Shown here: one piece after another, positions 5,701 to 42,000 of the stretch
Layout: each line of letters begins with the position of its first letter
Numbering within the stretch: the first letter of the stretch is position 1
Assembly: GCA_000739515.1 (NCBI GenBank)
Contig: DF820455.1
Location: forward strand, 1,258,203-1,304,711
Direction of reading: 5' to 3'
Length of the DNA: 46,509 nt
Source: Candidatus Moduliflexus flocculans
GTDB lineage: Bacteria > Moduliflexota > Moduliflexia > Moduliflexales > Moduliflexaceae
Position numbers and translations under genes: made by a program
Notes under the pieces: model-generated
Databases searched by the model: none
What the model was told of the DNA's origin: nothing
The model's input: the letters and a program-made list of their open reading frames with translations, nothing else

Positions 5701-8700
5701 TCATTATTGGAAGAGATGTTTGACGATTATCACACCGCTGCCGAATTCGGGCGATTAGCGATCCGCCTGAGCGAGCGTTTTGATAATCCCTCGCAAAAGT
5801 GTCGAACGTACCATACAGTTGCAATATTTATCAAGCCTTGGATAAAGCCGTTGCATTCCAGCACGGCGTTAGCCCGGCAAGGCTTCCAATATGGGATGGA
5901 ATCGGGCGAATTCGCGTATGCGGTTTATTGTCTGACGGTGGTGGCATTAATGCGGCTGACGCAGGGCACGGAATTGAACAGCGTCTTGCAAGTGTTTATC
6001 GAGATGGATAACATTTCTCAAAAAGCGCGCTACTATGGAATTGTGGAAAATATTCTCGCCACGCGGCAATTAGTTATCTGTCTTCAAGGACATACGGCCA
6101 ATCCAGGAACGTTTAATGATGAACACTTTTGCGAGGAGACATTCTTAGAGCAGATGAAGATGTCTCCTGTGGCTCGTTGTGAATTTTATACATATAAATT
6201 ACAAGCGTTTTATCTGTATGAGCGTTATGAAGACGCCTGGCGCATGGCACTTCACGCTGAGCCGCTGTTGCCTTCTATGGCTGGAATTGTGGCTGAAGCC
6301 GAGTATAATCTGTATGCGTCATTGACGCTCTGCGCTCTGTATTTAGCGGCGGATTCGCTGGAACAACAGCAATATCGCGAACGCTTGCGGGTAAATCAAC
6401 AACGGATGCAACGCTGGGCTGAGAATTGCGCTGAAAATTTCAGGCACAAATATCTGCTGATAGAAGCCGAAATCGCCAGAATCGAAGGGCGAGATTGGGA
6501 GGCTGTTGCTAACTATCGTCAGGCCATTGCCGAAGCCCGACAGCAGAAATTCCTCCAAAATGAGGCGATTGGAAATGAATTGTTCGCCAAATTCTGGCTC
6601 GCGCATGGGGACGAGCGTTTGGCGAGCGCCTGTCTCGCCGATGCGTATGATGGCTACCGGCGCTGGGGCGCTGATGGCAAAGTCGCTGACCTGAAAGCGC
6701 GTTATCCGCATCTGCTTATCAGAATGTCATTTGCGCAGCGTCCTTCGGGACAGGAGACCTCTCAAACAGACACGTCCAGCAACAGCACGACCGGCGCGAT
6801 GCTGGATGTCGCGACGGTCTTGAAAGCGTCACAGACGCTTTCCAGCGAGATTGTGCTGCCGGAATTGCTGAAAAAGATGATGCGGCTCGTGATGGAAAAT
6901 GCCGGGGCGCAAAAGGCGGCGCTGTTGCTCGAACAAAATGGCGTCTGGTTGGTGGAAGCTGAGAGCAGGATGGACAATGAAGAAATCGCGACCTTGCAGG
7001 CGCGTCCGCTTGACGAGCGTGATGGACATGCCGCGCCAGCCTTTGCACAGGCGATTATTACGTATGTCATGCGGACACAAACGCCGGTCGTGCTGCATGA
7101 TGCGGCCAATGAAGGCGTCTTCATTCATGATCCGTACATTATCGCACAACGTCCGAAATCTATTCTCTGCCTCCCGCTCATCAAGCAGGGACGGCTCGCC
7201 GGAATGCTTTATCTTGAAAATAATCTCGCGACCGGAGTCTTTACGCCCGTTCGGCTTGAACTATTAAACGCGCTTTCGGCGCAGATGATGATTTCGATTG
7301 AAAACGCGCTGCTGTATGCGACGCTTGAAAACAAGGTCAAAGAGCGCACGCGCGATTTAGAAACTGAAAAAGAAAAATTGCAGATCAGCGAACAACACGC
7401 GCAGGAATTAAAAGAGGCTGCCGAAACCGCCAATCGCGCGAAAAGTACCTTTTTGGCGCATATCAGCCATGAACTGCGCACGCCATTAAACGGCATTTTA
7501 GGCTATACTCAGTTGCTTCGCAATGATATTGGACTCGCCGGAAAACAACGCGACGCGGTGGCGGCGATTCATCGAAACGGAGAGCATCTGCTGCTGCTCA
7601 TCAACGATTTGCTTGATCTCTCGAAAATCGAATCGCAAAAGATGGAATTGTTCTTACAGACGTTTCCGCTGCCACTCTTTCTACAGAATCTAGTGGAAAC
7701 CAACGCCGATCGCGCCGCGCAGAAGGGACTGCGCGTCTATGCGGAGCTTTCGCCCGATCTCCCGCCCTTTGTGCATGCCGATGAGCGCCGTCTGCGGCAG
7801 ATACTCTTGAATCTGTTCAGCAATGCCATCAAATTTACGCATCATGGCTCAATCGTATTGCGTGTGTATCCTATCGAGGAGAGCAATCAGTCATCTTCTC
7901 CGCGCATTCATTTTGAAATTCAAGATACAGGCATTGGCATTGCCACCGAACATCTCTCGCAAGTTTTTATGGCATTTTTTCAGGTGAATCATCAATCCGC
8001 CTACGAAGGAAGCGGGTTAGGACTCACGATCAGCCAGCAGCTCGCGCGCCTCATGGGAAGCGAATTACGCGTCAACAGCACGGTCGGCAAAGGCAGCGTG
8101 TTCTGGTTCGAGGTGCGCCTTGCTGCTGCGGCAAACGCTTATGCGAACATTGCGCCGCCGCAGCGCCACATCCTCGGCGTTCGTGGCGAACAACGCAAAA
8201 TTCTGATTGTGGACGATCATGCCGGAAACCGGCAATTTTTGCAGGCATTGCTGCTCCCCTTAGGGTTTGACGTTCGCGAAGCCAGCAATGGACAGGAAGC
8301 AATTGAAATCGTCAGAACATGGCAGCCAGACGCGATTTTGATGGATTTAGTGATGCCGGTCATGGATGGATTCGAAGCGACCCGCCATATCCGCACTCTG
8401 AAAACTCACCCTGTTGTTATCGGCATCTCGGCCAGCGTGCTGACTCCGGCACGTCAAAATAGCTTTGCGGCAGGCTGCGATGATTTTTTGCCAAAACCGG
8501 TCTCATTCATCGAGCTATTGGACTGTTTGCAGCGGCATTTAGCGTTAGAGTGGGTCTATGCAAACACCGACGCAGACGACCTGGAAACGAAAGACGTTCG
8601 ACCGCCGAAAACAATCGTCTCTCCGACAACGACTCCTTCTCAGGATGTGCTGCTGAATATTTTACGATGCGCGGAAGGCGGCGACGTGACAGATTTGCAC

Positions 8701-9355: not shown

Positions 9356-9763
9356 GACGTATCCCCCTCTTCTTAATGGCAAGGCTGTGAAGTTCTCGTT
9401 CCGCGTGGAACGAGGGGCAGCGCAACCCTCACAGGATTTAGAACGTCACAACTCTGCCTTCTTAATGGTCGAAGAATGTAATGCAGGTTTCTGTTGTGCT
9501 GTATGGCCGAATGCGAAGAAGTCAAGAGCGCAAAAAAGAAAAAGCCGCCCCGCTGTGAGATCAGAAAAAACGAGGGACGACAGGGTTGTTATCGCATTAT
9601 TCAATGACATTGGAGCCGGAGAACGCGTGTCAAATCTTGAGTTGACCGCAATATCAAAATTTCGCGCTCCTCATCGAATCTTTCGTCGTTTATATCAAGA
9701 GAGAAACCGCTTGACCGATTTATCAATTTAGTAAAATGCAAAAAATACATTCGCACAACAGAC

Positions 9764-9795
9764 CTCACAGGTCTCGAAGACCTGTGAGGTCTCCA
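9764..9795 (-). terminator. Family-1 hairpin copy (CCTCACAGGTCTCGAAGACCTGTGAGG). Its TTGTTG tail lies on the minus strand, so it is oriented as a minus-strand terminator.
   Basis: Perfect 10-bp stems. It lies in the divergent Rrf2/alr intergenic region, with no annotated minus-strand gene upstream of it. Confidence 0.5.
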
Positions 9796-9923
9796 CCACA
9801 AACATATTTTTTACATTTTACTTATGAATGAATTCTTTTGTAATTTTCGAGATATCCTGTTTGAAATCCAACTCGGAACGCGCAAAATTTTTCTTGACGG
9901 AAATTGCTGGCGGCACTTCAGCG

Positions 9924-11129
9924 ATGAATATGGCCAATTTACATGAGTATTTTACAACCTATCACCGCCCGGTCTGGGCGGAAATTGATTTGGATGGCAT
10001 CGAACATAATTTGCGGGAATTCCGGCGCATTCTCCCGGCGCAGACGCAGATAATGGCGGTCGTCAAAGCCGACGCTTACGGACATGGCGCGTATCAGGTG
10101 GCGCAAACGGCGTTGCAATCGGGTGCATCGTGGCTCGCGGTGGCATTGGTCGAAGAAGGCATCTGCCTGCGGCGGAAAGGGATTACCGCGCCGCTTCTAC
10201 TGCTCGGCATCTCTGCACCTGGCACGGAACACGCGGTACTTGAACATGACCTGCGCCCGATGGTCTGCACGGTCGAATCGGCGCGGCGCTTTTCGGAATG
10301 CGGCCAGGCGATGCAAAAAACCGTTCAGTTTCACCTGAAGCTCGACACCGGCATGGGGCGCGTCGGCGTTCGTCCCGACAATTTGCCTACATTGCTCGAC
10401 ACGATCAGCGATCTGCCAAACCTTGAAATGGAAGGCGTGTTCACACATTTTGCGAAAGCAGACGAAACCGATAAAACCTATTCTCATTTACAAATCCGGC
10501 GGTTTCAAGAGTGCCTACATCGGATTCGACAGGGCGGATTCGCGCCGCGCTTCTGCTATCTTGCCAACAGCGCGGGCACGATGGAATTGCCGGACGCTCA
10601 CGCTGATATGGCGCGAATCGGCATTTCATTATATGGCATGTATCCGTCTGCCGAGGTTGATCCCGCTATTGTGCATCTCAAGCCGGTCTTGTGTTGGAAA
10701 ACCCGCGTTGTGCATCTCAAAACGCTGCCGCCGGGAGAAGCGGTCAGCTATGGCGGCCTGTTCGTGACGCAACGGCCAACCGTTGTCGCCACGCTGCCAG
10801 TCGGTTATGCGGACGGCTTTCGGCGACGGCTCTGGAAACAGCATTGGCATGTGCTGATTCGCGGGCAACGCGCTCCGATTATCGGGCGCATCTGCATGGA
10901 TATGTGCATGATTGATGCGACCGACATTCCCGGCGTGATGGTCGGCGACGAGGTTGTCTTAATTGGTTCACAGGGCGCGGAAACGATTCTAGCTGACGAC
11001 ATGGCCACCGCGCTTGACACGATTAACTATGAAATCACCTGTCTTGTCGGCAAGCGCGTACCGCGCATTTATCGGCGGCAGGGCGAAATCATTGGCATCG
11101 AAAGCCTGTTAGGCGAGCACGCTGCCTGA
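9924..11129 (+). CDS. alr: Alanine racemase (PLP-dependent).
   Basis: PLP-lysine motif AVVKADAYGHGA. The RPVWAEIDLDGIEHNLR N-terminus is typical of Alr. Length from ATG 9924 is about 400 aa. The ORF-track start at 9828 is probably too far upstream. Confidence 0.85.
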   Translation: MNMANLHEYFTTYHRPVWAEIDLDGIEHNLREFRRILPAQTQIMAVVKADAYGHGAYQVAQTALQSGASWLAVALVEEGICLRRKGITAPLLLLGISAPGTEHAVLEHDLRPMVCTVESARRFSECGQAMQKTVQFHLKLDTGMGRVGVRPDNLPTLLDTISDLPNLEMEGVFTHFAKADETDKTYSHLQIRRFQECLHRIRQGGFAPRFCYLANSAGTMELPDAHADMARIGISLYGMYPSAEVDPAIVHLKPVLCWKTRVVHLKTLPPGEAVSYGGLFVTQRPTVVATLPVGYADGFRRRLWKQHWHVLIRGQRAPIIGRICMDMCMIDATDIPGVMVGDEVVLIGSQGAETILADDMATALDTINYEITCLVGKRVPRIYRRQGEIIGIESLLGEHAA

Positions 11130-19347: not shown

Positions 19348-19361
19348 ATCCCGCCACCGAA

Positions 19362-19397
19362 CCCGTCAGACACCTGCAAGGTGTCTGACGGGTTTTA
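19362..19397 (+). terminator. Family-2 hairpin CCCGTCAGACACCT-gcaa-AGGTGTCTGACGGG followed by TTTTAC. Candidate intrinsic terminator of glgC.
   Basis: 14-bp perfect stem. A second copy with the same GTCAGACACCT core lies at 29760-29796. Confidence 0.6.
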
Positions 19398-26413: not shown

Positions 26414-26498
26414 GCGAGGATAACATTGGCGTGTCAGGCGCTTCCTGTGCGCCTGACACGCATGAAACGTGTTTCAACATAACCGCGCTGATGATTCT

Positions 26499-28190
26499 TT
26501 ACGTCAGGATCGGCGCATCGTGGCGGTCTTCGTTCATTAATTGTTGTACCTGTTCGATAATTCCGGTGAGTTGCTGGCTCACGCGCCCAATATTCTCCGA
26601 GCTTTGCGCCACCTGCTGCACAAATTGTTCAATTTCCCCGACACCGGCAGAAACAGCGGCTTGCATCACCTGCACCATCTCTTCAATGTCTAAAGTGGCA
26701 ACCGCAGTCTGGTCAGCCAGCCGCCGGATTTCCTGAGCCACCACAGCAAAACCGCGCCCGTATTCTCCCGCTTTTTCGGCTTCAATCGCCGCGTTTAATG
26801 AGAGTAAATTCGTTTGATCCGCGACGCGCGTGATCGTGGTGATCATGCTGGTAATGTTTTGGGCTTTATCGTGAATTTCCTGAAGCTTTTCCGCGATTGT
26901 TCTGGATGCCTGCTCCATATAGCCCATCGAATCGTCCATCCTGGAAATATTGACGTGGCTGATTTTCGCTAAATCGGAGGTCTTCTTTGAAACGGCTGCG
27001 ATAAATTGGCGTCTGGCCTCCGCGAGTTCTCGCTCTTTCGCGGCCTGTTCCTGTTCTTTCAGCGTTTTCGCGCGTGCTTTGGTTTCCGTAATATCAGCCA
27101 GAAAGCCTTCATAATACTGCGTTGTCCCATCAGTGTCACAGACTGCCCGCGCGGAGAGCGCCCCCCAGAAAGGGGTGCCATCGTGGCGTTTTCCCTCAAT
27201 TTCAAGTCCAAAGACATGATCGTGCGTTTGCAGATGAGCGATAAAGCTATTCCACTCAGCAGAAGCCGAAAAAAGATAGCTCCGCAGAGAAGTCACGCGC
27301 TCTTCGAGGTCTTCAACAGAATTGAACCCTAATATTTTTGCCATCGCGGCATTGGTTCGCAACACATTTCCCGTGTCTGGCGCGATTTGAAAGATGCCTT
27401 CCAGCGCATTTTCGAAAATTTTGCGATACCGCTCTTCGGCTTGCCGCAAATCATCAATATTGTTGCGAATCACATCGCGCATCATCGCAAAGCTGGAGGC
27501 TAACGCGCCGAGTTCGTCGCCGCGCCGCGTGTCAATCGTCTGCTCCAAATTCCCCTGCGCAACATGTTCAACGTTTGTTTGCAGGGTGCTGATTGGGAAC
27601 ACCACAGCCCGGCGGATAAAAATAATAATGGCGGCGGAAGTCACGAAAATGCACAAAAACGAGCCAAACACAAACATATTTCGAATGCGCTCTTTTTGCG
27701 CTTCAGACTGTTTTGTATTGACTTTGATAAATGCAACGAAGACGGGTTCGCCGCCTTCATACGCGACAATCGGCGTAGCGCAGATCAAAAATGCGTCTTG
27801 TTTGGCGGTTTGGCGAAACACGCGGGTCGTTTTTAGCTCCGAGGCGTTGCTCGTTTCTTGAATCCAGGCAATGTCAGCGCGCGTTTTTCGAATATCGTCA
27901 GGATGAAGCGCATAATAGACTTTTTGATCGGTGCCAATGACGACGCCGTCTTCGAAGTCTTCCCCCACGATTTCTGTCATCACCTCTTTATTCGAGACAG
28001 ACTCGTAGCGAAGCAGTTGGCGATTCATGAGAATGCCGGGGAGTCGAATCTGCGCATCCATGCGATTATCAATCTCATGCGAAAACCGATTGATGTAGTA
28101 GAGGCCGAGCATCGCAAACGCGACGGCCTCGACCACAATCACCGCCAGACTGATTTTGATGCTCAGACTTTTCAACCAGAGTTGTTTCAT
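26499..28190 (-). CDS. Methyl-accepting chemotaxis protein: 2 TM helices with a periplasmic domain, then HAMP, cytoplasmic PAS and the MCP signalling domain.
   Basis: HAMP ([14 protein letters not shown]). PAS ([14 protein letters not shown]). MCP highly conserved region [34 protein letters not shown]. The start ATG overlaps the stop of the upstream SBP gene as ATGA. Confidence 0.85.
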
Positions 28191-29464
28191 TGTGGCAGAA
28201 CCTTCTGCTTTTGTTGTTCGACATCCTTGAGAATCGCGGGGATGGCGTCAGGTTGATCGAGAAATTTCGCAAACGCATTCAGCCCCAATTCCGCGACATC
28301 CGGGTCAGTCGCTAAATCATAATTAAACGCCCAGTTCGGCGCGGCACGAATCGCGTCAAGAATGCGCTGTTGTAGATCGGAATAAAACGAGGAAGGCACG
28401 TTCATATTGGGCGATAATGCGCCGGACCCCTGGCTCATTTTCTGCTGGGGTTCAACATCCGAAAAATAGACCATCGCTGTTTTCGCAGCCTTCACTTTTC
28501 CTTCTTTCGCTACCGCAATTGCGTCAATCGGCCCTAATGACGCGCCAGGGACCTCTGGCGTCACCGCCGGGAACGGGAAAAAGTCATAATCCTGTCCCTG
28601 TTTCCAGCCAAGCTGCCCATCAAACAGACCGATAATCCATGTTCCCATCAGCGTCATCGCCGCCTCGCCATGAAATAGCTGTTTCGCCGCCTCTGACCAA
28701 TCCAGCATATTGGGGTTCGTTGTCAAATAACCTTGCGAAATCAAGTCTTTCCAGAGCGAAAACGCGGCGCTGACTTCAGGATCGGTATAAGCGGCGTGAT
28801 GCGTCATTAAGCGCTGCCGATATTCCGGCCCGGCAGTGCGCAGAAGCAGATAATCGAACCAGAATTGCGCCGGCCAGCGGTCGCGCGCGCCAAGCGCAAT
28901 CGGCGTGATGCCTGCGGCTTTGATCTTCTGGCAGGCGGCGAGAAATTCCTCCCAGGTGGCGGGAGGCGTCAGATTTAATTGTTGAAAAATCCGCGTGTTG
29001 TAAAACAAGGCAACATAATGCTGCGTGACCGGAATGATATATTTTTGTCCGTTATAGGTACAGGCTTGCCCAATGGCTGCGGGGAAACGCTCATCCATTT
29101 TTTCCGCCGCCCAGATATCGTCAATCGCGTCTAAATATCCCTCTTTCACTAATGCTTGAACGCGCGCTCCAGCCCAATAGGAAAACATATCCGGTGGATT
29201 GCCGCCCGCTAACATGACCTTGATGCTGATTTTGAAGGATTCATGCTCAAATCCTGTCGCTCTGACGGTATATTCGGGATGGATTGCGCTGAACGCGCTG
29301 ACCATGTCGTTAATCCCGCCGCTTAACGCGCCTGTCCAATAATGCAGAAAAATAATTTGCTCCGTTTCCGCCGCAAAAAGCTTGCCTGTGAACATAACTC
29401 CGCTCATGATCACCAGCCATGCCGCCATGTTCTTCAGCCTGAACGTCGCTCTTCGTGTTCGCAT
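28187..29464 (-). CDS. Extracellular solute-binding protein, family 1 (MalE-like sugar-binding SBP), translationally coupled to the downstream MCP gene.
   Basis: Signal peptide. A perfect AAGGAGG RBS upstream of ATG 29464. Typical SBP_bac_1 N-terminal pattern (IIFLHYWTG...[13 protein letters not shown]). Confidence 0.75.
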
Positions 29465-29759
29465 ACGCTCCTCCTTCGTTTTAATGGTTTTTGGATAAGA
29501 CCTCAGAGGCTGTTCTAACAGTCTGGAGTGCCAAAGCTTGCTTTGGCTGACAACGCAAGCAATGAACTGTCATAATGCTCGCATCTATGTATAGAAGGGA
29601 AAGTAAGGTTGTTCGATGAGAAAGTCAATAAAAAAATAGGAAAGACAGAAATGTCTTGTCACAATAATAATCTACGGCAGATTAACTGATGGGTTGAACA
29701 TGCCGCGCTGGAATTACGCTTGACAGAATGCTCGGCGTTCTGATAAGGTTGCGGGGAAA

Positions 29760-29796
29760 CTGTCAGACACCTTAAAGGTGTCTGACAGTTTTTTGG
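29760..29796 (+). terminator. Family-2 hairpin CTGTCAGACACCT-taa-AGGTGTCTGACAG plus TTTTTTGG. A strong intrinsic-terminator-like structure 50 bp upstream of cbiD.
   Basis: 13-bp perfect stem followed by a T6 run on the plus strand. It lies in the cbiD leader. Confidence 0.6.
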
Positions 29797-29844
29797 TTCA
29801 TAATATGTTGTTTCATGATAATGTTGGAAAAGGTTTGAACATGT

Positions 29845-30942
29845 ATGCTGAGAATAGACGATCTGCATGACATCAAAGACGGTCAGCGCCTCCGTTGCGG
29901 CTACACGACCGGCAGTTGTGCCGCCGCTGCCGCCAAAGCTGCCGCGCTGATGCTGCGCGACGGCGCAATTCCTGAATTTGTCGAGTTGGAAACGCCCGCT
30001 GGAATTACGCTGAATTTGCGGGTCGAACAGCCGCGTCTTGAGGCGGATCGCGCTTCATGCTGCATCGTGAAAGACGCGGGCGATGACCCGGATGTGACGA
30101 ACGGCATCGGGATTTTTGCTAAGGTGAAACGCCGTTCTGACGGTGAAATCAGCATTGACGGCGGCGAAGGCATCGGACGCATCACGCGCAAGGGTTTCTG
30201 GGGCGAAGTCGGCGACGCGGCGATTAATCCCGTGCCGCGCAAGATGATTCGCGATGCGGTGCGTCAGGTGGCGGCTCATGGCTGGGACGTGTTGATTTTC
30301 GCGCCGCACGGGCGGGAAATTGCGCAGAAGACCTTCAACCCGAACCTCGGCATCGAAGACGGCATTTCGATTATCGGCACAACTGGCATCGTGCGGCCAA
30401 TGTCGGATGATGCGCTGAAAAAAACGATTTTTTTAGAAATTGATCAGATTGCCGAAACGAGCGCAGCGGAAATTCTGCTCTGCCTCGGCAATTACGGCGA
30501 AAAAATGTCGGTGGCGCTGCCGCGCCGGATGCCGATGGTGAAAATCGCCAATTTCATCGGCGAATCGCTGGCGTACTGTCATAGCAAAGGCTTCCAGCAG
30601 GTAACACTGTTCGGACATGTCGGCAAGCTCAGCAAGCTCGCCATCGGCGCGTTTAATACGCATAACCGCGTCTGCGACGCCCGAATCGAGGCATTCGTTT
30701 ATTATCTCGCCCTTGCCGGAGCGCCGTATGCGTTGCTGCAACAGGTCAACCAGTGTGTCACATCAGAAGATGCGGCGCAACTGCTGATTGATAGCGGCCA
30801 CCGGCAGCTATTCGCGGAGATGCAGCGCGGCTGCGTTGAACGAATTCAACGCTATGTCAAAGACGATGGTTTTATCGTTGACGTGATTTTTTACTCGCTG
30901 CGACATGGAATACTGGTTGACAATTCCCTGACATCTAACTAA
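29845..30942 (+). CDS. cbiD: Cobalt-precorrin-5B (C1)-methyltransferase CbiD.
   Basis: LRCGYTTGSCAAAAAKAAALML is a CbiD hallmark. Length 365 aa. Confidence 0.9.
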   Translation: MLRIDDLHDIKDGQRLRCGYTTGSCAAAAAKAAALMLRDGAIPEFVELETPAGITLNLRVEQPRLEADRASCCIVKDAGDDPDVTNGIGIFAKVKRRSDGEISIDGGEGIGRITRKGFWGEVGDAAINPVPRKMIRDAVRQVAAHGWDVLIFAPHGREIAQKTFNPNLGIEDGISIIGTTGIVRPMSDDALKKTIFLEIDQIAETSAAEILLCLGNYGEKMSVALPRRMPMVKIANFIGESLAYCHSKGFQQVTLFGHVGKLSKLAIGAFNTHNRVCDARIEAFVYYLALAGAPYALLQQVNQCVTSEDAAQLLIDSGHRQLFAEMQRGCVERIQRYVKDDGFIVDVIFYSLRHGILVDNSLTSN

Positions 30943-31144
30943 TTTGGTTTTTGTCATAAGATATTACTGATCCAGTCATTTTCAGGAGTGCAAACGCGTG
31001 CTTGCCGCATGAAGTCGTCACGTCTTTCCCTGACGTTATCAGACCGCAAAAGCAGTCACAGTACCATCCCTCGAAACCGTCGAACAGGAACTTGCGAAGG
31101 TATCGGCGAAATGATTTGCGGAAATCTGCGGTTGACGCATTGTT

Positions 31145-32306: not shown

Positions 32307-32325
32307 AAACAACGACCGGATAACA

Positions 32326-32358
32326 CCTCACAGGTTTTGAAAACCTGTGAGGTTTGTA
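32326..32358 (+). terminator. Family-1 hairpin copy (CCTCACAGGTTTTGAAAACCTGTGAGG + TTTGTATG) located inside the cbi operon between cbiT and cbiL.
   Basis: Perfect 10-bp stems. It ends 10 nt before the cbiL start codon. Confidence 0.55.
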
Positions 32359-33042: not shown

Positions 33043-33080
33043 TAGGGTGCAAAAGCAAGCTTTTGCACTCCTATTTTTCT
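33043..33080 (+). terminator. Family-5 perfect palindrome GGAGTGCAAAAGC-AA-GCTTTTGCACTCC followed by TATTTTTCT, between cbiL and cbiF.
   Basis: 13-bp perfect arms plus a T-run. Other copies at 33841-33891 (tandem/extended), 30983-31011 (degenerate) and 29527-29552 (degenerate). Confidence 0.6.
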
Positions 33081-33840: not shown

Positions 33841-33891
33841 CAGGAGTGCAAAAGCTTGCTTTTGCGGCAAAAGCAAGCTTTTGCACTCCTG
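33841..33891. repeat. Family-5 palindrome in extended/tandem form (CAGGAGTGCAAAAGCTTGCTTTTGC-GGC-AAAAGCAAGCTTTTGCACTCCTG), between cbiF and cbiG.
   Basis: A 51-bp near-perfect palindrome read directly. Confidence 0.6.
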
Positions 33892-38617: not shown

Positions 38618-39202
38618 ATGAAACATCAATGGCATTTTTTATGGCTTTTTGTCGGCGCATGCTGCCTGTTCCCGGCTAATCGCGCCGTATCTCAGGACAC
38701 TCAGCCAGAAACGCTTCGATTGCCGGAAGTTGTGATCATCGGCATTGACGAATCGAAAATTCAGCGTCCGATTCCAAAAGTTGAATTGCTTCCCGCGTCG
38801 CTTCCGGTGATGACAACGTCGTGTTTGGATGAGGCGGATGCGTTGGCGTGGCAGGCGGCGTTGGTGGCGCTGCTTCAGCCGCGCAAGGCGGAAAAATTGT
38901 ATCAACAGGCGATTGCGCTTGATCCGGAAGATACAGACGCCTATGCGCGTTTGGGAAAAACATATCAGGCGTCCGGCATGTACGAACGCGCGAAAGATGC
39001 CTATCTCAAGGCCATCGAACGCGATAGCGGCGTCAGCGACATGCATTATGCGTTAGGCATTTTGTATGACAGCCATTTGCGTGAGCCGCAAAAAGCGCTT
39101 GAACAGTATCGTGTCTATCTTGAGCATGGCGGCGCGGATGCGCGGGTGAAATTCTGGATGCGGGAACTTGAGGAGAAATTGCAATCGCCGACAACTCCGT
39201 AG
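38618..39202 (+). CDS. Secreted TPR-repeat protein.
   Basis: Signal peptide. TPR-like repeats (YQQAIALDPEDTDAYARLGKTY..., YLKAIERDSGVSDMHYALGILY). Confidence 0.65.
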   Translation: MKHQWHFLWLFVGACCLFPANRAVSQDTQPETLRLPEVVIIGIDESKIQRPIPKVELLPASLPVMTTSCLDEADALAWQAALVALLQPRKAEKLYQQAIALDPEDTDAYARLGKTYQASGMYERAKDAYLKAIERDSGVSDMHYALGILYDSHLREPQKALEQYRVYLEHGGADARVKFWMRELEEKLQSPTTP

Positions 39203-39226
39203 AGACGCACGGCTGTGCGTCTCTAC
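39199..39226. terminator. Family-3 hairpin GTAGAGACGCAC-GGCT-GTGCGTCTCTAC, between convergent genes.
   Basis: 12-bp perfect stem. A second copy lies at 41967-42000. Confidence 0.6.
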
Positions 39227-39236
39227 GTTGCGGGGA

Positions 39237-41966: not shown

Positions 41967-42000
41967 CCGGTAGAGACGCGCGGGTGCGCGTCTCTACCGG
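41967..42000. terminator. Family-3 hairpin CCGGTAGAGACGCGC-GGGT-GCGCGTCTCTACCGG, about 30 bp downstream of the MCP stop on the minus strand.
   Basis: 15-bp perfect stem read directly. Confidence 0.6.

Follow-up and report, generated by a model that had tools for sequence, protein, structure and literature searches.

A terminator-shaped palindromic repeat upstream of cbiD in Candidatus Moduliflexus flocculans, at a site with no recognizable cobalamin riboswitch

The cbiD locus and its upstream hairpin

The DNA that was analyzed, referred to here as the window, is a stretch of 46,509 nt from Candidatus Moduliflexus flocculans, a member of the candidate phylum KSB3/Modulibacteria, and corresponds to positions 1,258,203–1,304,711 of the forward strand of contig DF820455.1 (assembly GCA_000739515.1). 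Within it, cbiD (29845–30942, forward strand) encodes cobalt-precorrin-5B C1-methyltransferase (Pfam PF01888, E = 6e-93; 100% identical to the M. flocculans protein) and is the first gene of a cbi cluster, being followed in order by cbiE, cbiT, cbiL, cbiF, cbiG and the gene for a PduO-type adenosyltransferase. A solute-binding-protein gene (28187–29464) is located on the opposite strand, directly upstream of the intergenic region that precedes cbiD. An earlier sequence-only reading of this DNA had treated the 380 bp between the two genes as a leader of cbiD; the stretch is as described, but because the solute-binding-protein gene is on the opposite strand it is a divergent intergenic region rather than a single 380-nt leader.

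An inverted-repeat search and folding identified a perfect palindromic hairpin on the forward strand at 29757–29791, which reads AAACTGTCAGACACCTT-A-AAGGTGTCTGACAGTTT and has arms of 17 nt each (29757–29773 and 29775–29791) that are 100% complementary. Repeat comparison assigned it to a family that we term A-type, with the core CTGTCAGACAC. The run of six T that accompanies it (29789–29794, forward strand) overlaps the base of the stem, such that the first three T pair with AAA and the next three lie beyond the stem. RNA of 29740–29800 was predicted to fold at −31.6 kcal/mol (z = −7.2), and none of 200 shuffled sequences was equally stable. From the end of the T-run to the ATG of cbiD (29845) is 50 nt, and the claims that a strong hairpin plus T6 precedes cbiD, and does so by about 50 bp, were therefore borne out. 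The hairpin was not listed by a simple consensus terminator scan of the window, presumably because an extension of the stem that tolerates G-T pairs consumed the T-run. It has the stable hairpin and U-rich tract of an intrinsic terminator; however, no co-oriented gene ends upstream of it on either strand, so it does not mark the 3' end of a transcription unit. The site thus resembles a bidirectional intrinsic (Rho-independent) terminator in having an A-tract, a stable hairpin and a U-run, but differs from one in being placed between divergent genes, close to a start codon and at the end of no annotated unit.

Upstream of the hairpin is the hexamer TTGACA (29720–29725, forward strand), which is also present upstream of cbiD in the relatives L214, L081, L084, L089, L215, L216, L087, L212 and L213 and is absent from that position in L085, L090 and L211. 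The hexamer is a putative −35 element of a cbiD promoter; its candidate partner TGATAAGG (29741–29748, forward strand), located 16–18 nt past TTGACA, would be a weak or extended −10 that falls short of the consensus criteria of the scan, leaving the promoter assignment of TTGACA without a good −10. Both elements are unchanged in L214. The hairpin starts 31 nt past TTGACA, which is approximately the predicted transcription start. If TTGACA does serve as the promoter, the RNA would therefore begin at the hairpin, and no sensor RNA would precede the hairpin.

The closest relative, L214, has a CbiD that is 93% identical and has the same leader, including the hairpin and the T6 run. Positions 29530–29844 of the window and 1–315 of L214 are 91.7% identical with no indel over the 315 nt, and the identity is even, at 0.89–0.93 in every sub-region. 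This is higher than the identity of the two sequences at fourfold-degenerate sites (77% for cbiD, 80% for cbiD and cbiE together; Fisher p = 1e-4), and the cbiD|cbiE and cbiT|cbiL spacers of the same contig are only ~50% identical to those of L214 and have large indels. The excess over the ~80% identity of fourfold sites means that this region is constrained and has some function, in our reading probably that of a promoter and 5' sequence of one of the divergent genes or of both. Recent recombination was considered as a cause of the conservation and rejected, as the first 90 codons of cbiD, which adjoin the leader, have a fourfold identity of only 0.70. The hairpin is not favored over the rest of the leader: in L214 it has three substitutions, two of which break pairs and are uncompensated, and hence perfect pairing is not strictly maintained.

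A search of genome contigs with CbiD returned distant homologues only (≤59% identity), none of them from relatives of Moduliflexus. The divergent leaders of the relatives' loci were compared by anchoring them on shared motifs, a MAFFT alignment having proved misleading. The distance from TTGACA to the start codon is 38–50 nt in L087, L212 and L213, as compared with 125 nt in the window and 122 nt in L081. The extra ~75 nt is occupied by the A-type hairpin in the window, and by an unrelated hairpin of the GTAGAGACGC family, with no T-run, in L081, L084 and L089; the hairpins of the window and of L081 start 31–33 nt past TTGACA. No hairpin was found at the orthologous site in L087, and in L085 cbiD starts 16 nt past a patatin gene with no leader between them. 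Relatives with 83–89% CbiD identity therefore lack the A-type hairpin at this site, and the differing hairpins, the absence of any hairpin and the absence of a leader together indicate that the site gains and loses palindromes among these relatives. This turnover among close relatives makes a conserved sensor RNA at the site unlikely. In two further loci the leader of cbiD has a C-type element, which in L215 (1140–1260) has a second perfect hairpin (CCTTGCGAAGGTT-tcg-AACCTTCGCAAGG) nested in its loop and in L216 is shortened.

Palindromic repeat families in the window and in relatives

The segment 29756–29793 matches 19359–19396 over 38 nt with 84% identity. The second site contains another A-type hairpin (19360–19394; AACCCGTCAGACACCT-gca-AGGTGTCTGACGGGTT, then TTTAC), which has a perfect 16-bp stem, starts 13 nt past the stop codon of a glgC-like gene, and has two stem changes relative to the cbiD copy, both of which are compensated. 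The core CTGTCAGACAC was also found in L090, as a perfect 15-bp hairpin over the stop codon of cbiD, and in L087, as a truncated half-copy after cbiD. Across three full A-type copies, three stem positions differ, all of them compensated, and there are no mismatches. Among the A-type copies, a full T6 adjoins the stem only in the one upstream of cbiD, which also, unlike most family members, follows no gene on either strand.

The A-type family is one of several. In the 46.5 kb there are 12 perfect hairpins with stems of at least 10 bp (0.43 in shuffled sequences) and nine with stems of at least 13 bp (none in shuffled sequences), and the 12 fall into about four sequence families with the cores GTCAGACACC, ACCTCACAGGT, GTAGAGACGC and GGAGTGCAAAAGC. 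Intergenic positions account for ten of the 12, and eight of the ten are 0–40 nt past a stop codon, including at three junctions of the cbi cluster. At cbiT|cbiL is a B-type hairpin (32325–32353; ACCTCACAGGT core), which has an orthologous copy in L081 (7644–7676). At cbiL|cbiF is a D-type hairpin followed by T5 (33043–33078, of which 33047–33068 is perfect), such that terminator-shaped palindromes also occur inside the cbi cluster. At cbiF|cbiG is a doubled D-type palindrome with perfect arms of 25 nt (33841–33891), which has an orthologous copy in L089 (5097–5147). A degenerate D-type copy (GGAGTGCcAAAGCTTGCTTTGGC...) is present within the upstream region of cbiD itself (29522–29560) and is 82–91% identical to 33841–33891 and 33049–33071. 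The other intergenic perfect hairpins are at 1262–1296, 9760–9792, 26429–26461, 39198–39227 and 41967–42000, and stem lengths across these and the hairpins above range from 10 to 25 bp. By family, we counted two A-type copies in the 46.5 kb, in addition to those in L090, L087 and L214, three B-type, two C-type and four to five D-type copies; this census covers the window and the relatives' loci and thus a handful of copies.

The arms of several of these hairpins are themselves palindromic, such as ACCT-CAC-AGGT, and GCAAAAGC-TT-GCTTTTGC, which is doubled into 25-nt arms. The B-type hairpin at 9760–9792 is also part of a more elaborate arrangement upstream of alr (start 9828), where the segment 9712–9822 has a promoter-like TTGACC-15-TAAAAT followed by the hairpin, which is embedded in a 45-nt imperfect inverted repeat (9730–9822). 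Like cbiD, alr therefore has a family hairpin in its 5' region.

Repetitive extragenic palindromes (REPs) are short, occur as several families per genome and are located mostly near the 3' ends of ORFs (PMC3733652, PMC2817692), and a terminal unpaired tag, GTAG or CGTC, defines the classical REP (PMC3733652). The elements of the window were compared with REPs as extragenic palindromes of 20–40 bp that have tens to hundreds of copies per genome, a GTAG or CGTC tag and an association with RAYT (an IS200/IS605-like Y1 transposase). In size and location they are alike, as the window elements are 29–51 bp long, mostly intergenic and just past stop codons. As with the REPs and BIMEs of proteobacteria, they occupy gaps between unidirectional or convergent genes and could plausibly be present in transcripts as RNA hairpins, and elements of this type show turnover by presence and absence, as well as nesting, between close relatives. 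They differ, however, in that their stems are perfect and in that A-type elements lack the unpaired tag: neither motif occurs in the cbiD copy, the copy at 19360 has CGTC within its stem, and the C-type has GTAG within its stem. No Y1 transposase domain was detected in the 30 ORFs of the window that were scanned with Pfam. The paper describing the M. flocculans genome does not mention palindromic repeats (PMC4312070), and REP-like terminator-shaped repeats would appear to be new for the KSB3 phylum, in which none had been described.

A palindrome of the form GTCAGACACC...GGTGTCTGAC was also identified in at least 120 metagenome stretches (L091–L170 and others; for example, L146 at 1015–1265 and 10426–10750). 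About 85% of these palindromes extend to GGTGTCAGACACC-loop-GGTGTCTGACACC, mostly on high-GC (0.66–0.74) soil contigs; in sample Ga0182736 there are up to six copies per 12 kb, in both orientations, and in L146 the copies at 1015 and 1176 are preceded by GTAG. None of the metagenome palindromes had Moduliflexus flanks, and the scan is uninformative on copy number in M. flocculans. The GGTGTCAGACACC palindromes look like a REP family of an unrelated high-GC organism, and the 10-mer that they have in common with the Moduliflexus palindromes may be a coincidence.

Search for a cobalamin riboswitch

The sequence-only reading had noted no recognizable cobalamin riboswitch and no B12-box core upstream of cbiD, and both observations held in covariance-model and motif searches. 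With the Rfam models for RF00174 (gathering threshold 31.5 bits), the AdoCbl-variant RF01689 and clan CL00101 among those tested, a scan of the whole window at the gathering thresholds gave no matches, and a scan of 29300–30000 at E ≤ 10 gave no riboswitch, only hairpin-shaped microRNA look-alikes. A B12 box (AGYCMGGNGACCKGCC-like) was not found in the leader of cbiD with up to three mismatches allowed.

These searches had a clear positive control. RF00174 scored 97 bits in the KSB3 relative L212 (68% CbiD identity), at 9587–9836 (forward strand), directly upstream of cbiD, where the aptamer is followed by a stem of ~17 bp, U7 and then cbiD. A second match, of 97.9 bits, was obtained in L213 at 6178–6406 (reverse strand), upstream of an operon of hemA, hemL and a DUF1638 gene. 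Given these scores, the model readily recognizes the riboswitches of KSB3, and its silence at cbiD of the window is meaningful since the same model scores 97 bits in a more distant member of the phylum. The two positions, upstream of cbiD in L212 and of the hem operon in L213, also indicate that placement of the riboswitch varies among lineages of the phylum. In six loci from closer relatives (L081, L084, L085, L087, L089 and L090) no Rfam cobalamin riboswitch was matched. The lineage of M. flocculans, then, has no cobalamin riboswitch at cbiD, whereas a canonical one is present there in L212, a distant KSB3 member.

It had been suggested that the leader might hold a divergent variant of the riboswitch. 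This suggestion is not supported, and that of a hidden or degenerate riboswitch was rejected, given that blastn and nhmmer searches of the leader with the KSB3 aptamers of L212 and L213 found nothing significant, in agreement with the Rfam scan at E ≤ 10 and the B12-box search. Nor is the hairpin a remnant of the riboswitch terminator of L212, to which it has no sequence similarity. The cbiD site of the window has in common with a cobalamin riboswitch (RF00174, CL00101) and its intrinsic-terminator platform the position upstream of cbiD and a long stem with a U-run, as in L212. It differs in having no aptamer, no B12 box and no antiterminator, and in that the hairpin sequence is a dispersed repeat rather than a leader-specific helix.

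Possible functions of the hairpin

In the reading that we consider rather probable, the cbiD transcript starts with a REP-like palindromic element, the hairpin, whose effect is constitutive and which does not sense B12. By this account, a short perfect palindromic repeat specific to the lineage, which doubles as a terminator-shaped stem-loop, would have lodged in the promoter-proximal 5' region of cbiD. Transcription from the TTGACA box would begin at about the position where the hairpin starts, and the mRNA would carry, at its 5' end or close to it, a highly stable stem-loop with U6 behind it. From this combination would follow constitutive partial termination of transcription that derives from further upstream, capping of the 5' end of the message by the stem-loop, or both; any such effect would be independent of ligand, and B12 would not be sensed.

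Some stem-loops at the 5' terminus stabilize mRNA, as exemplified by the leader of E. coli ompA. The cbiD hairpin would be alike in that, with TTGACA as the −35, it starts a few nt from the predicted 5' end, as would the hairpin of L081, but it differs in that the U6 directly after the stem would also favor termination, and its start site is a predicted one.

A strong hairpin with a T-run ahead of a B12 gene can mimic an orphan riboswitch platform and is easily over-read; here it is one of many repeat-derived hairpins. Within KSB3, the canonical cobalamin riboswitch is used at cbiD in one lineage and is missing in the Moduliflexus lineage. The window also shows that perfect palindromic repeats of several families, with quick turnover, populate the intergenic regions of this uncultured filamentous bulking bacterium; by inserting into 5' regions and at operon junctions, they could affect how operons are expressed.

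The sequence-only reading regarded the leader as an attenuator expression platform, and the rival explanation closest to that idea is a conditional attenuator specific to the clade, in which transcription starts upstream of the hairpin and a protein, small RNA or metabolite gates termination at the hairpin and U6, the repeat having been co-opted as the expression platform. We regard this as doubtful. The terminator shape of the hairpin stands, the leader is more conserved in L214 than synonymous sites are, with no indel and with T6 kept, and the riboswitch, stem and U7 that control cbiD in L212 indicate that premature termination upstream of this gene is used in KSB3. However, other observations speak against it. 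Folding of the leader with the terminator gave −67.6 kcal/mol, as against −46.5 kcal/mol with the 3' arm blocked, a cost of 21 kcal/mol; the 5' arm can otherwise pair only with the 6-nt UGACAG (6 bp), and the fold contains no competing antiterminator of comparable stability. The 170 nt upstream of the hairpin (29583–29752) fold no better than shuffled sequences (z = −1.15), and no Rfam family was matched even at E ≤ 10. The best promoter-like site from which a longer leader could be transcribed (29547–29576) holds three of the five L214 substitutions of its segment, these being within its two hexamers, and with both hexamers mutated in L214 its candidacy as a leader promoter is weakened. With TTGACA as the promoter, in turn, the transcript would start at the hairpin. 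In addition, the leader is absent from the clades of L081, L087 and L085. The further suggestion that another attenuation mechanism operates at this site was for these reasons not upheld, as the hairpin is a copy of a repeat, is missing in relatives with 83–89% identical CbiD, and has no antiterminator. A more specific history, in which a mobile palindrome was co-opted after loss of the riboswitch as the terminator of a new attenuator specific to the clade, with the sensor in the 315-nt leader, seems unlikely to us.

A leader peptide or hidden ORF was examined as a further candidate and rejected, as no frame is open in both the window and L214, the changes in candidate ORFs are non-synonymous, and no leader peptide or ORF is conserved between the two. 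The 26 substitutions between 29530–29844 and L214 1–315 are distributed 15/9/2 by position modulo 3 (chi-square p ~0.008), a periodicity that may be due to chance.

In a second rival explanation, the hairpin is an insulator or a true terminator, at which a short unannotated transcript or stray transcription out of the divergent promoter region ends, and cbiD is transcribed from a promoter downstream of the hairpin or overlapping its 3' arm. The scan did identify a promoter-like site in that position (CTGACA-16-TATGTT, 29782–29809), both hexamers of which are unchanged in L214, and other members of the repeat families are located in terminator-like fashion at the 3' ends of genes. We nevertheless judge this explanation improbable, since the promoter-like site matches only nine of 12 consensus positions, the conserved TTGACA is upstream and not downstream of the hairpin, no conserved small ORF or RNA family was found upstream, and the promoter-like site there is degraded in L214.

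Finally, it is very improbable that the palindrome acts as DNA, either as the operator of a dimeric regulator over the transcription start or as a cruciform or recombination site, because, although the predicted start site coincides with this perfect 35-bp palindrome, whose arms contain the self-palindromic TGTCAGACA and whose surroundings are rearranged, the same core occurs past the stop codons of unrelated genes, the stem changes between copies are compensated, as befits a hairpin and not a fixed protein-binding sequence, and the ORF annotation of the window has no regulator gene adjoining it.

The gene order around cbiD was itself variable. Almost every relative has a different gene upstream of cbiD (L081, L085, L087, L090, L211–L213, L215 and L216), these neighbors including a 125-aa ORF, a patatin gene, a 47-aa ORF beside restriction-modification genes, cbiC, a GGDEF regulator gene, a DUF6062 gene, a 204-aa ORF with a DUF433 gene beyond it, and HigB. 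Only L211 keeps the ancestral order cbiA-cbiC-cbiD, and L090 shares with it the adjacency of cbiC and cbiD. Judged from these comparisons of gene order, the 5' side of cbiD is a rearrangement hot spot. On the 3' side, a complete gene of 355–371 aa is located between cbiD and cbiE in L085, L087 and L089 and is split in L081; in the window, the gap between cbiD and cbiE encodes only the last ~23 codons of it (31043–31111; TAKAVTVPSLETVEQELAKVSAK). As the full gene is present between cbiD and cbiE in relatives and the window has only its 3' end, 31043–31111 is a deletion remnant. The 356-aa protein encoded beside cbiD in relatives matched no Pfam or NCBIfam family and has QQG repeats, and its N-terminus may resemble the Rpn-type recombination-promoting nucleases. 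A marginal match (E ~1) of 68% over 63 nt between 29485–29543 and the 3' flank of cbiD at 30945–31003 (TGGTTTTTG...GGAGTGCAAA.GC.TGCTT) would place cbiD between direct repeats that contain D-type sequence. In addition, a 28-nt segment of the leader that ends at TTGACA (29693–29720) is 86% identical to 29985–30011 within cbiD (GCTGGAATTACGCT being exact; E = 0.05 within the window), and this match may be a trace of past rearrangement.
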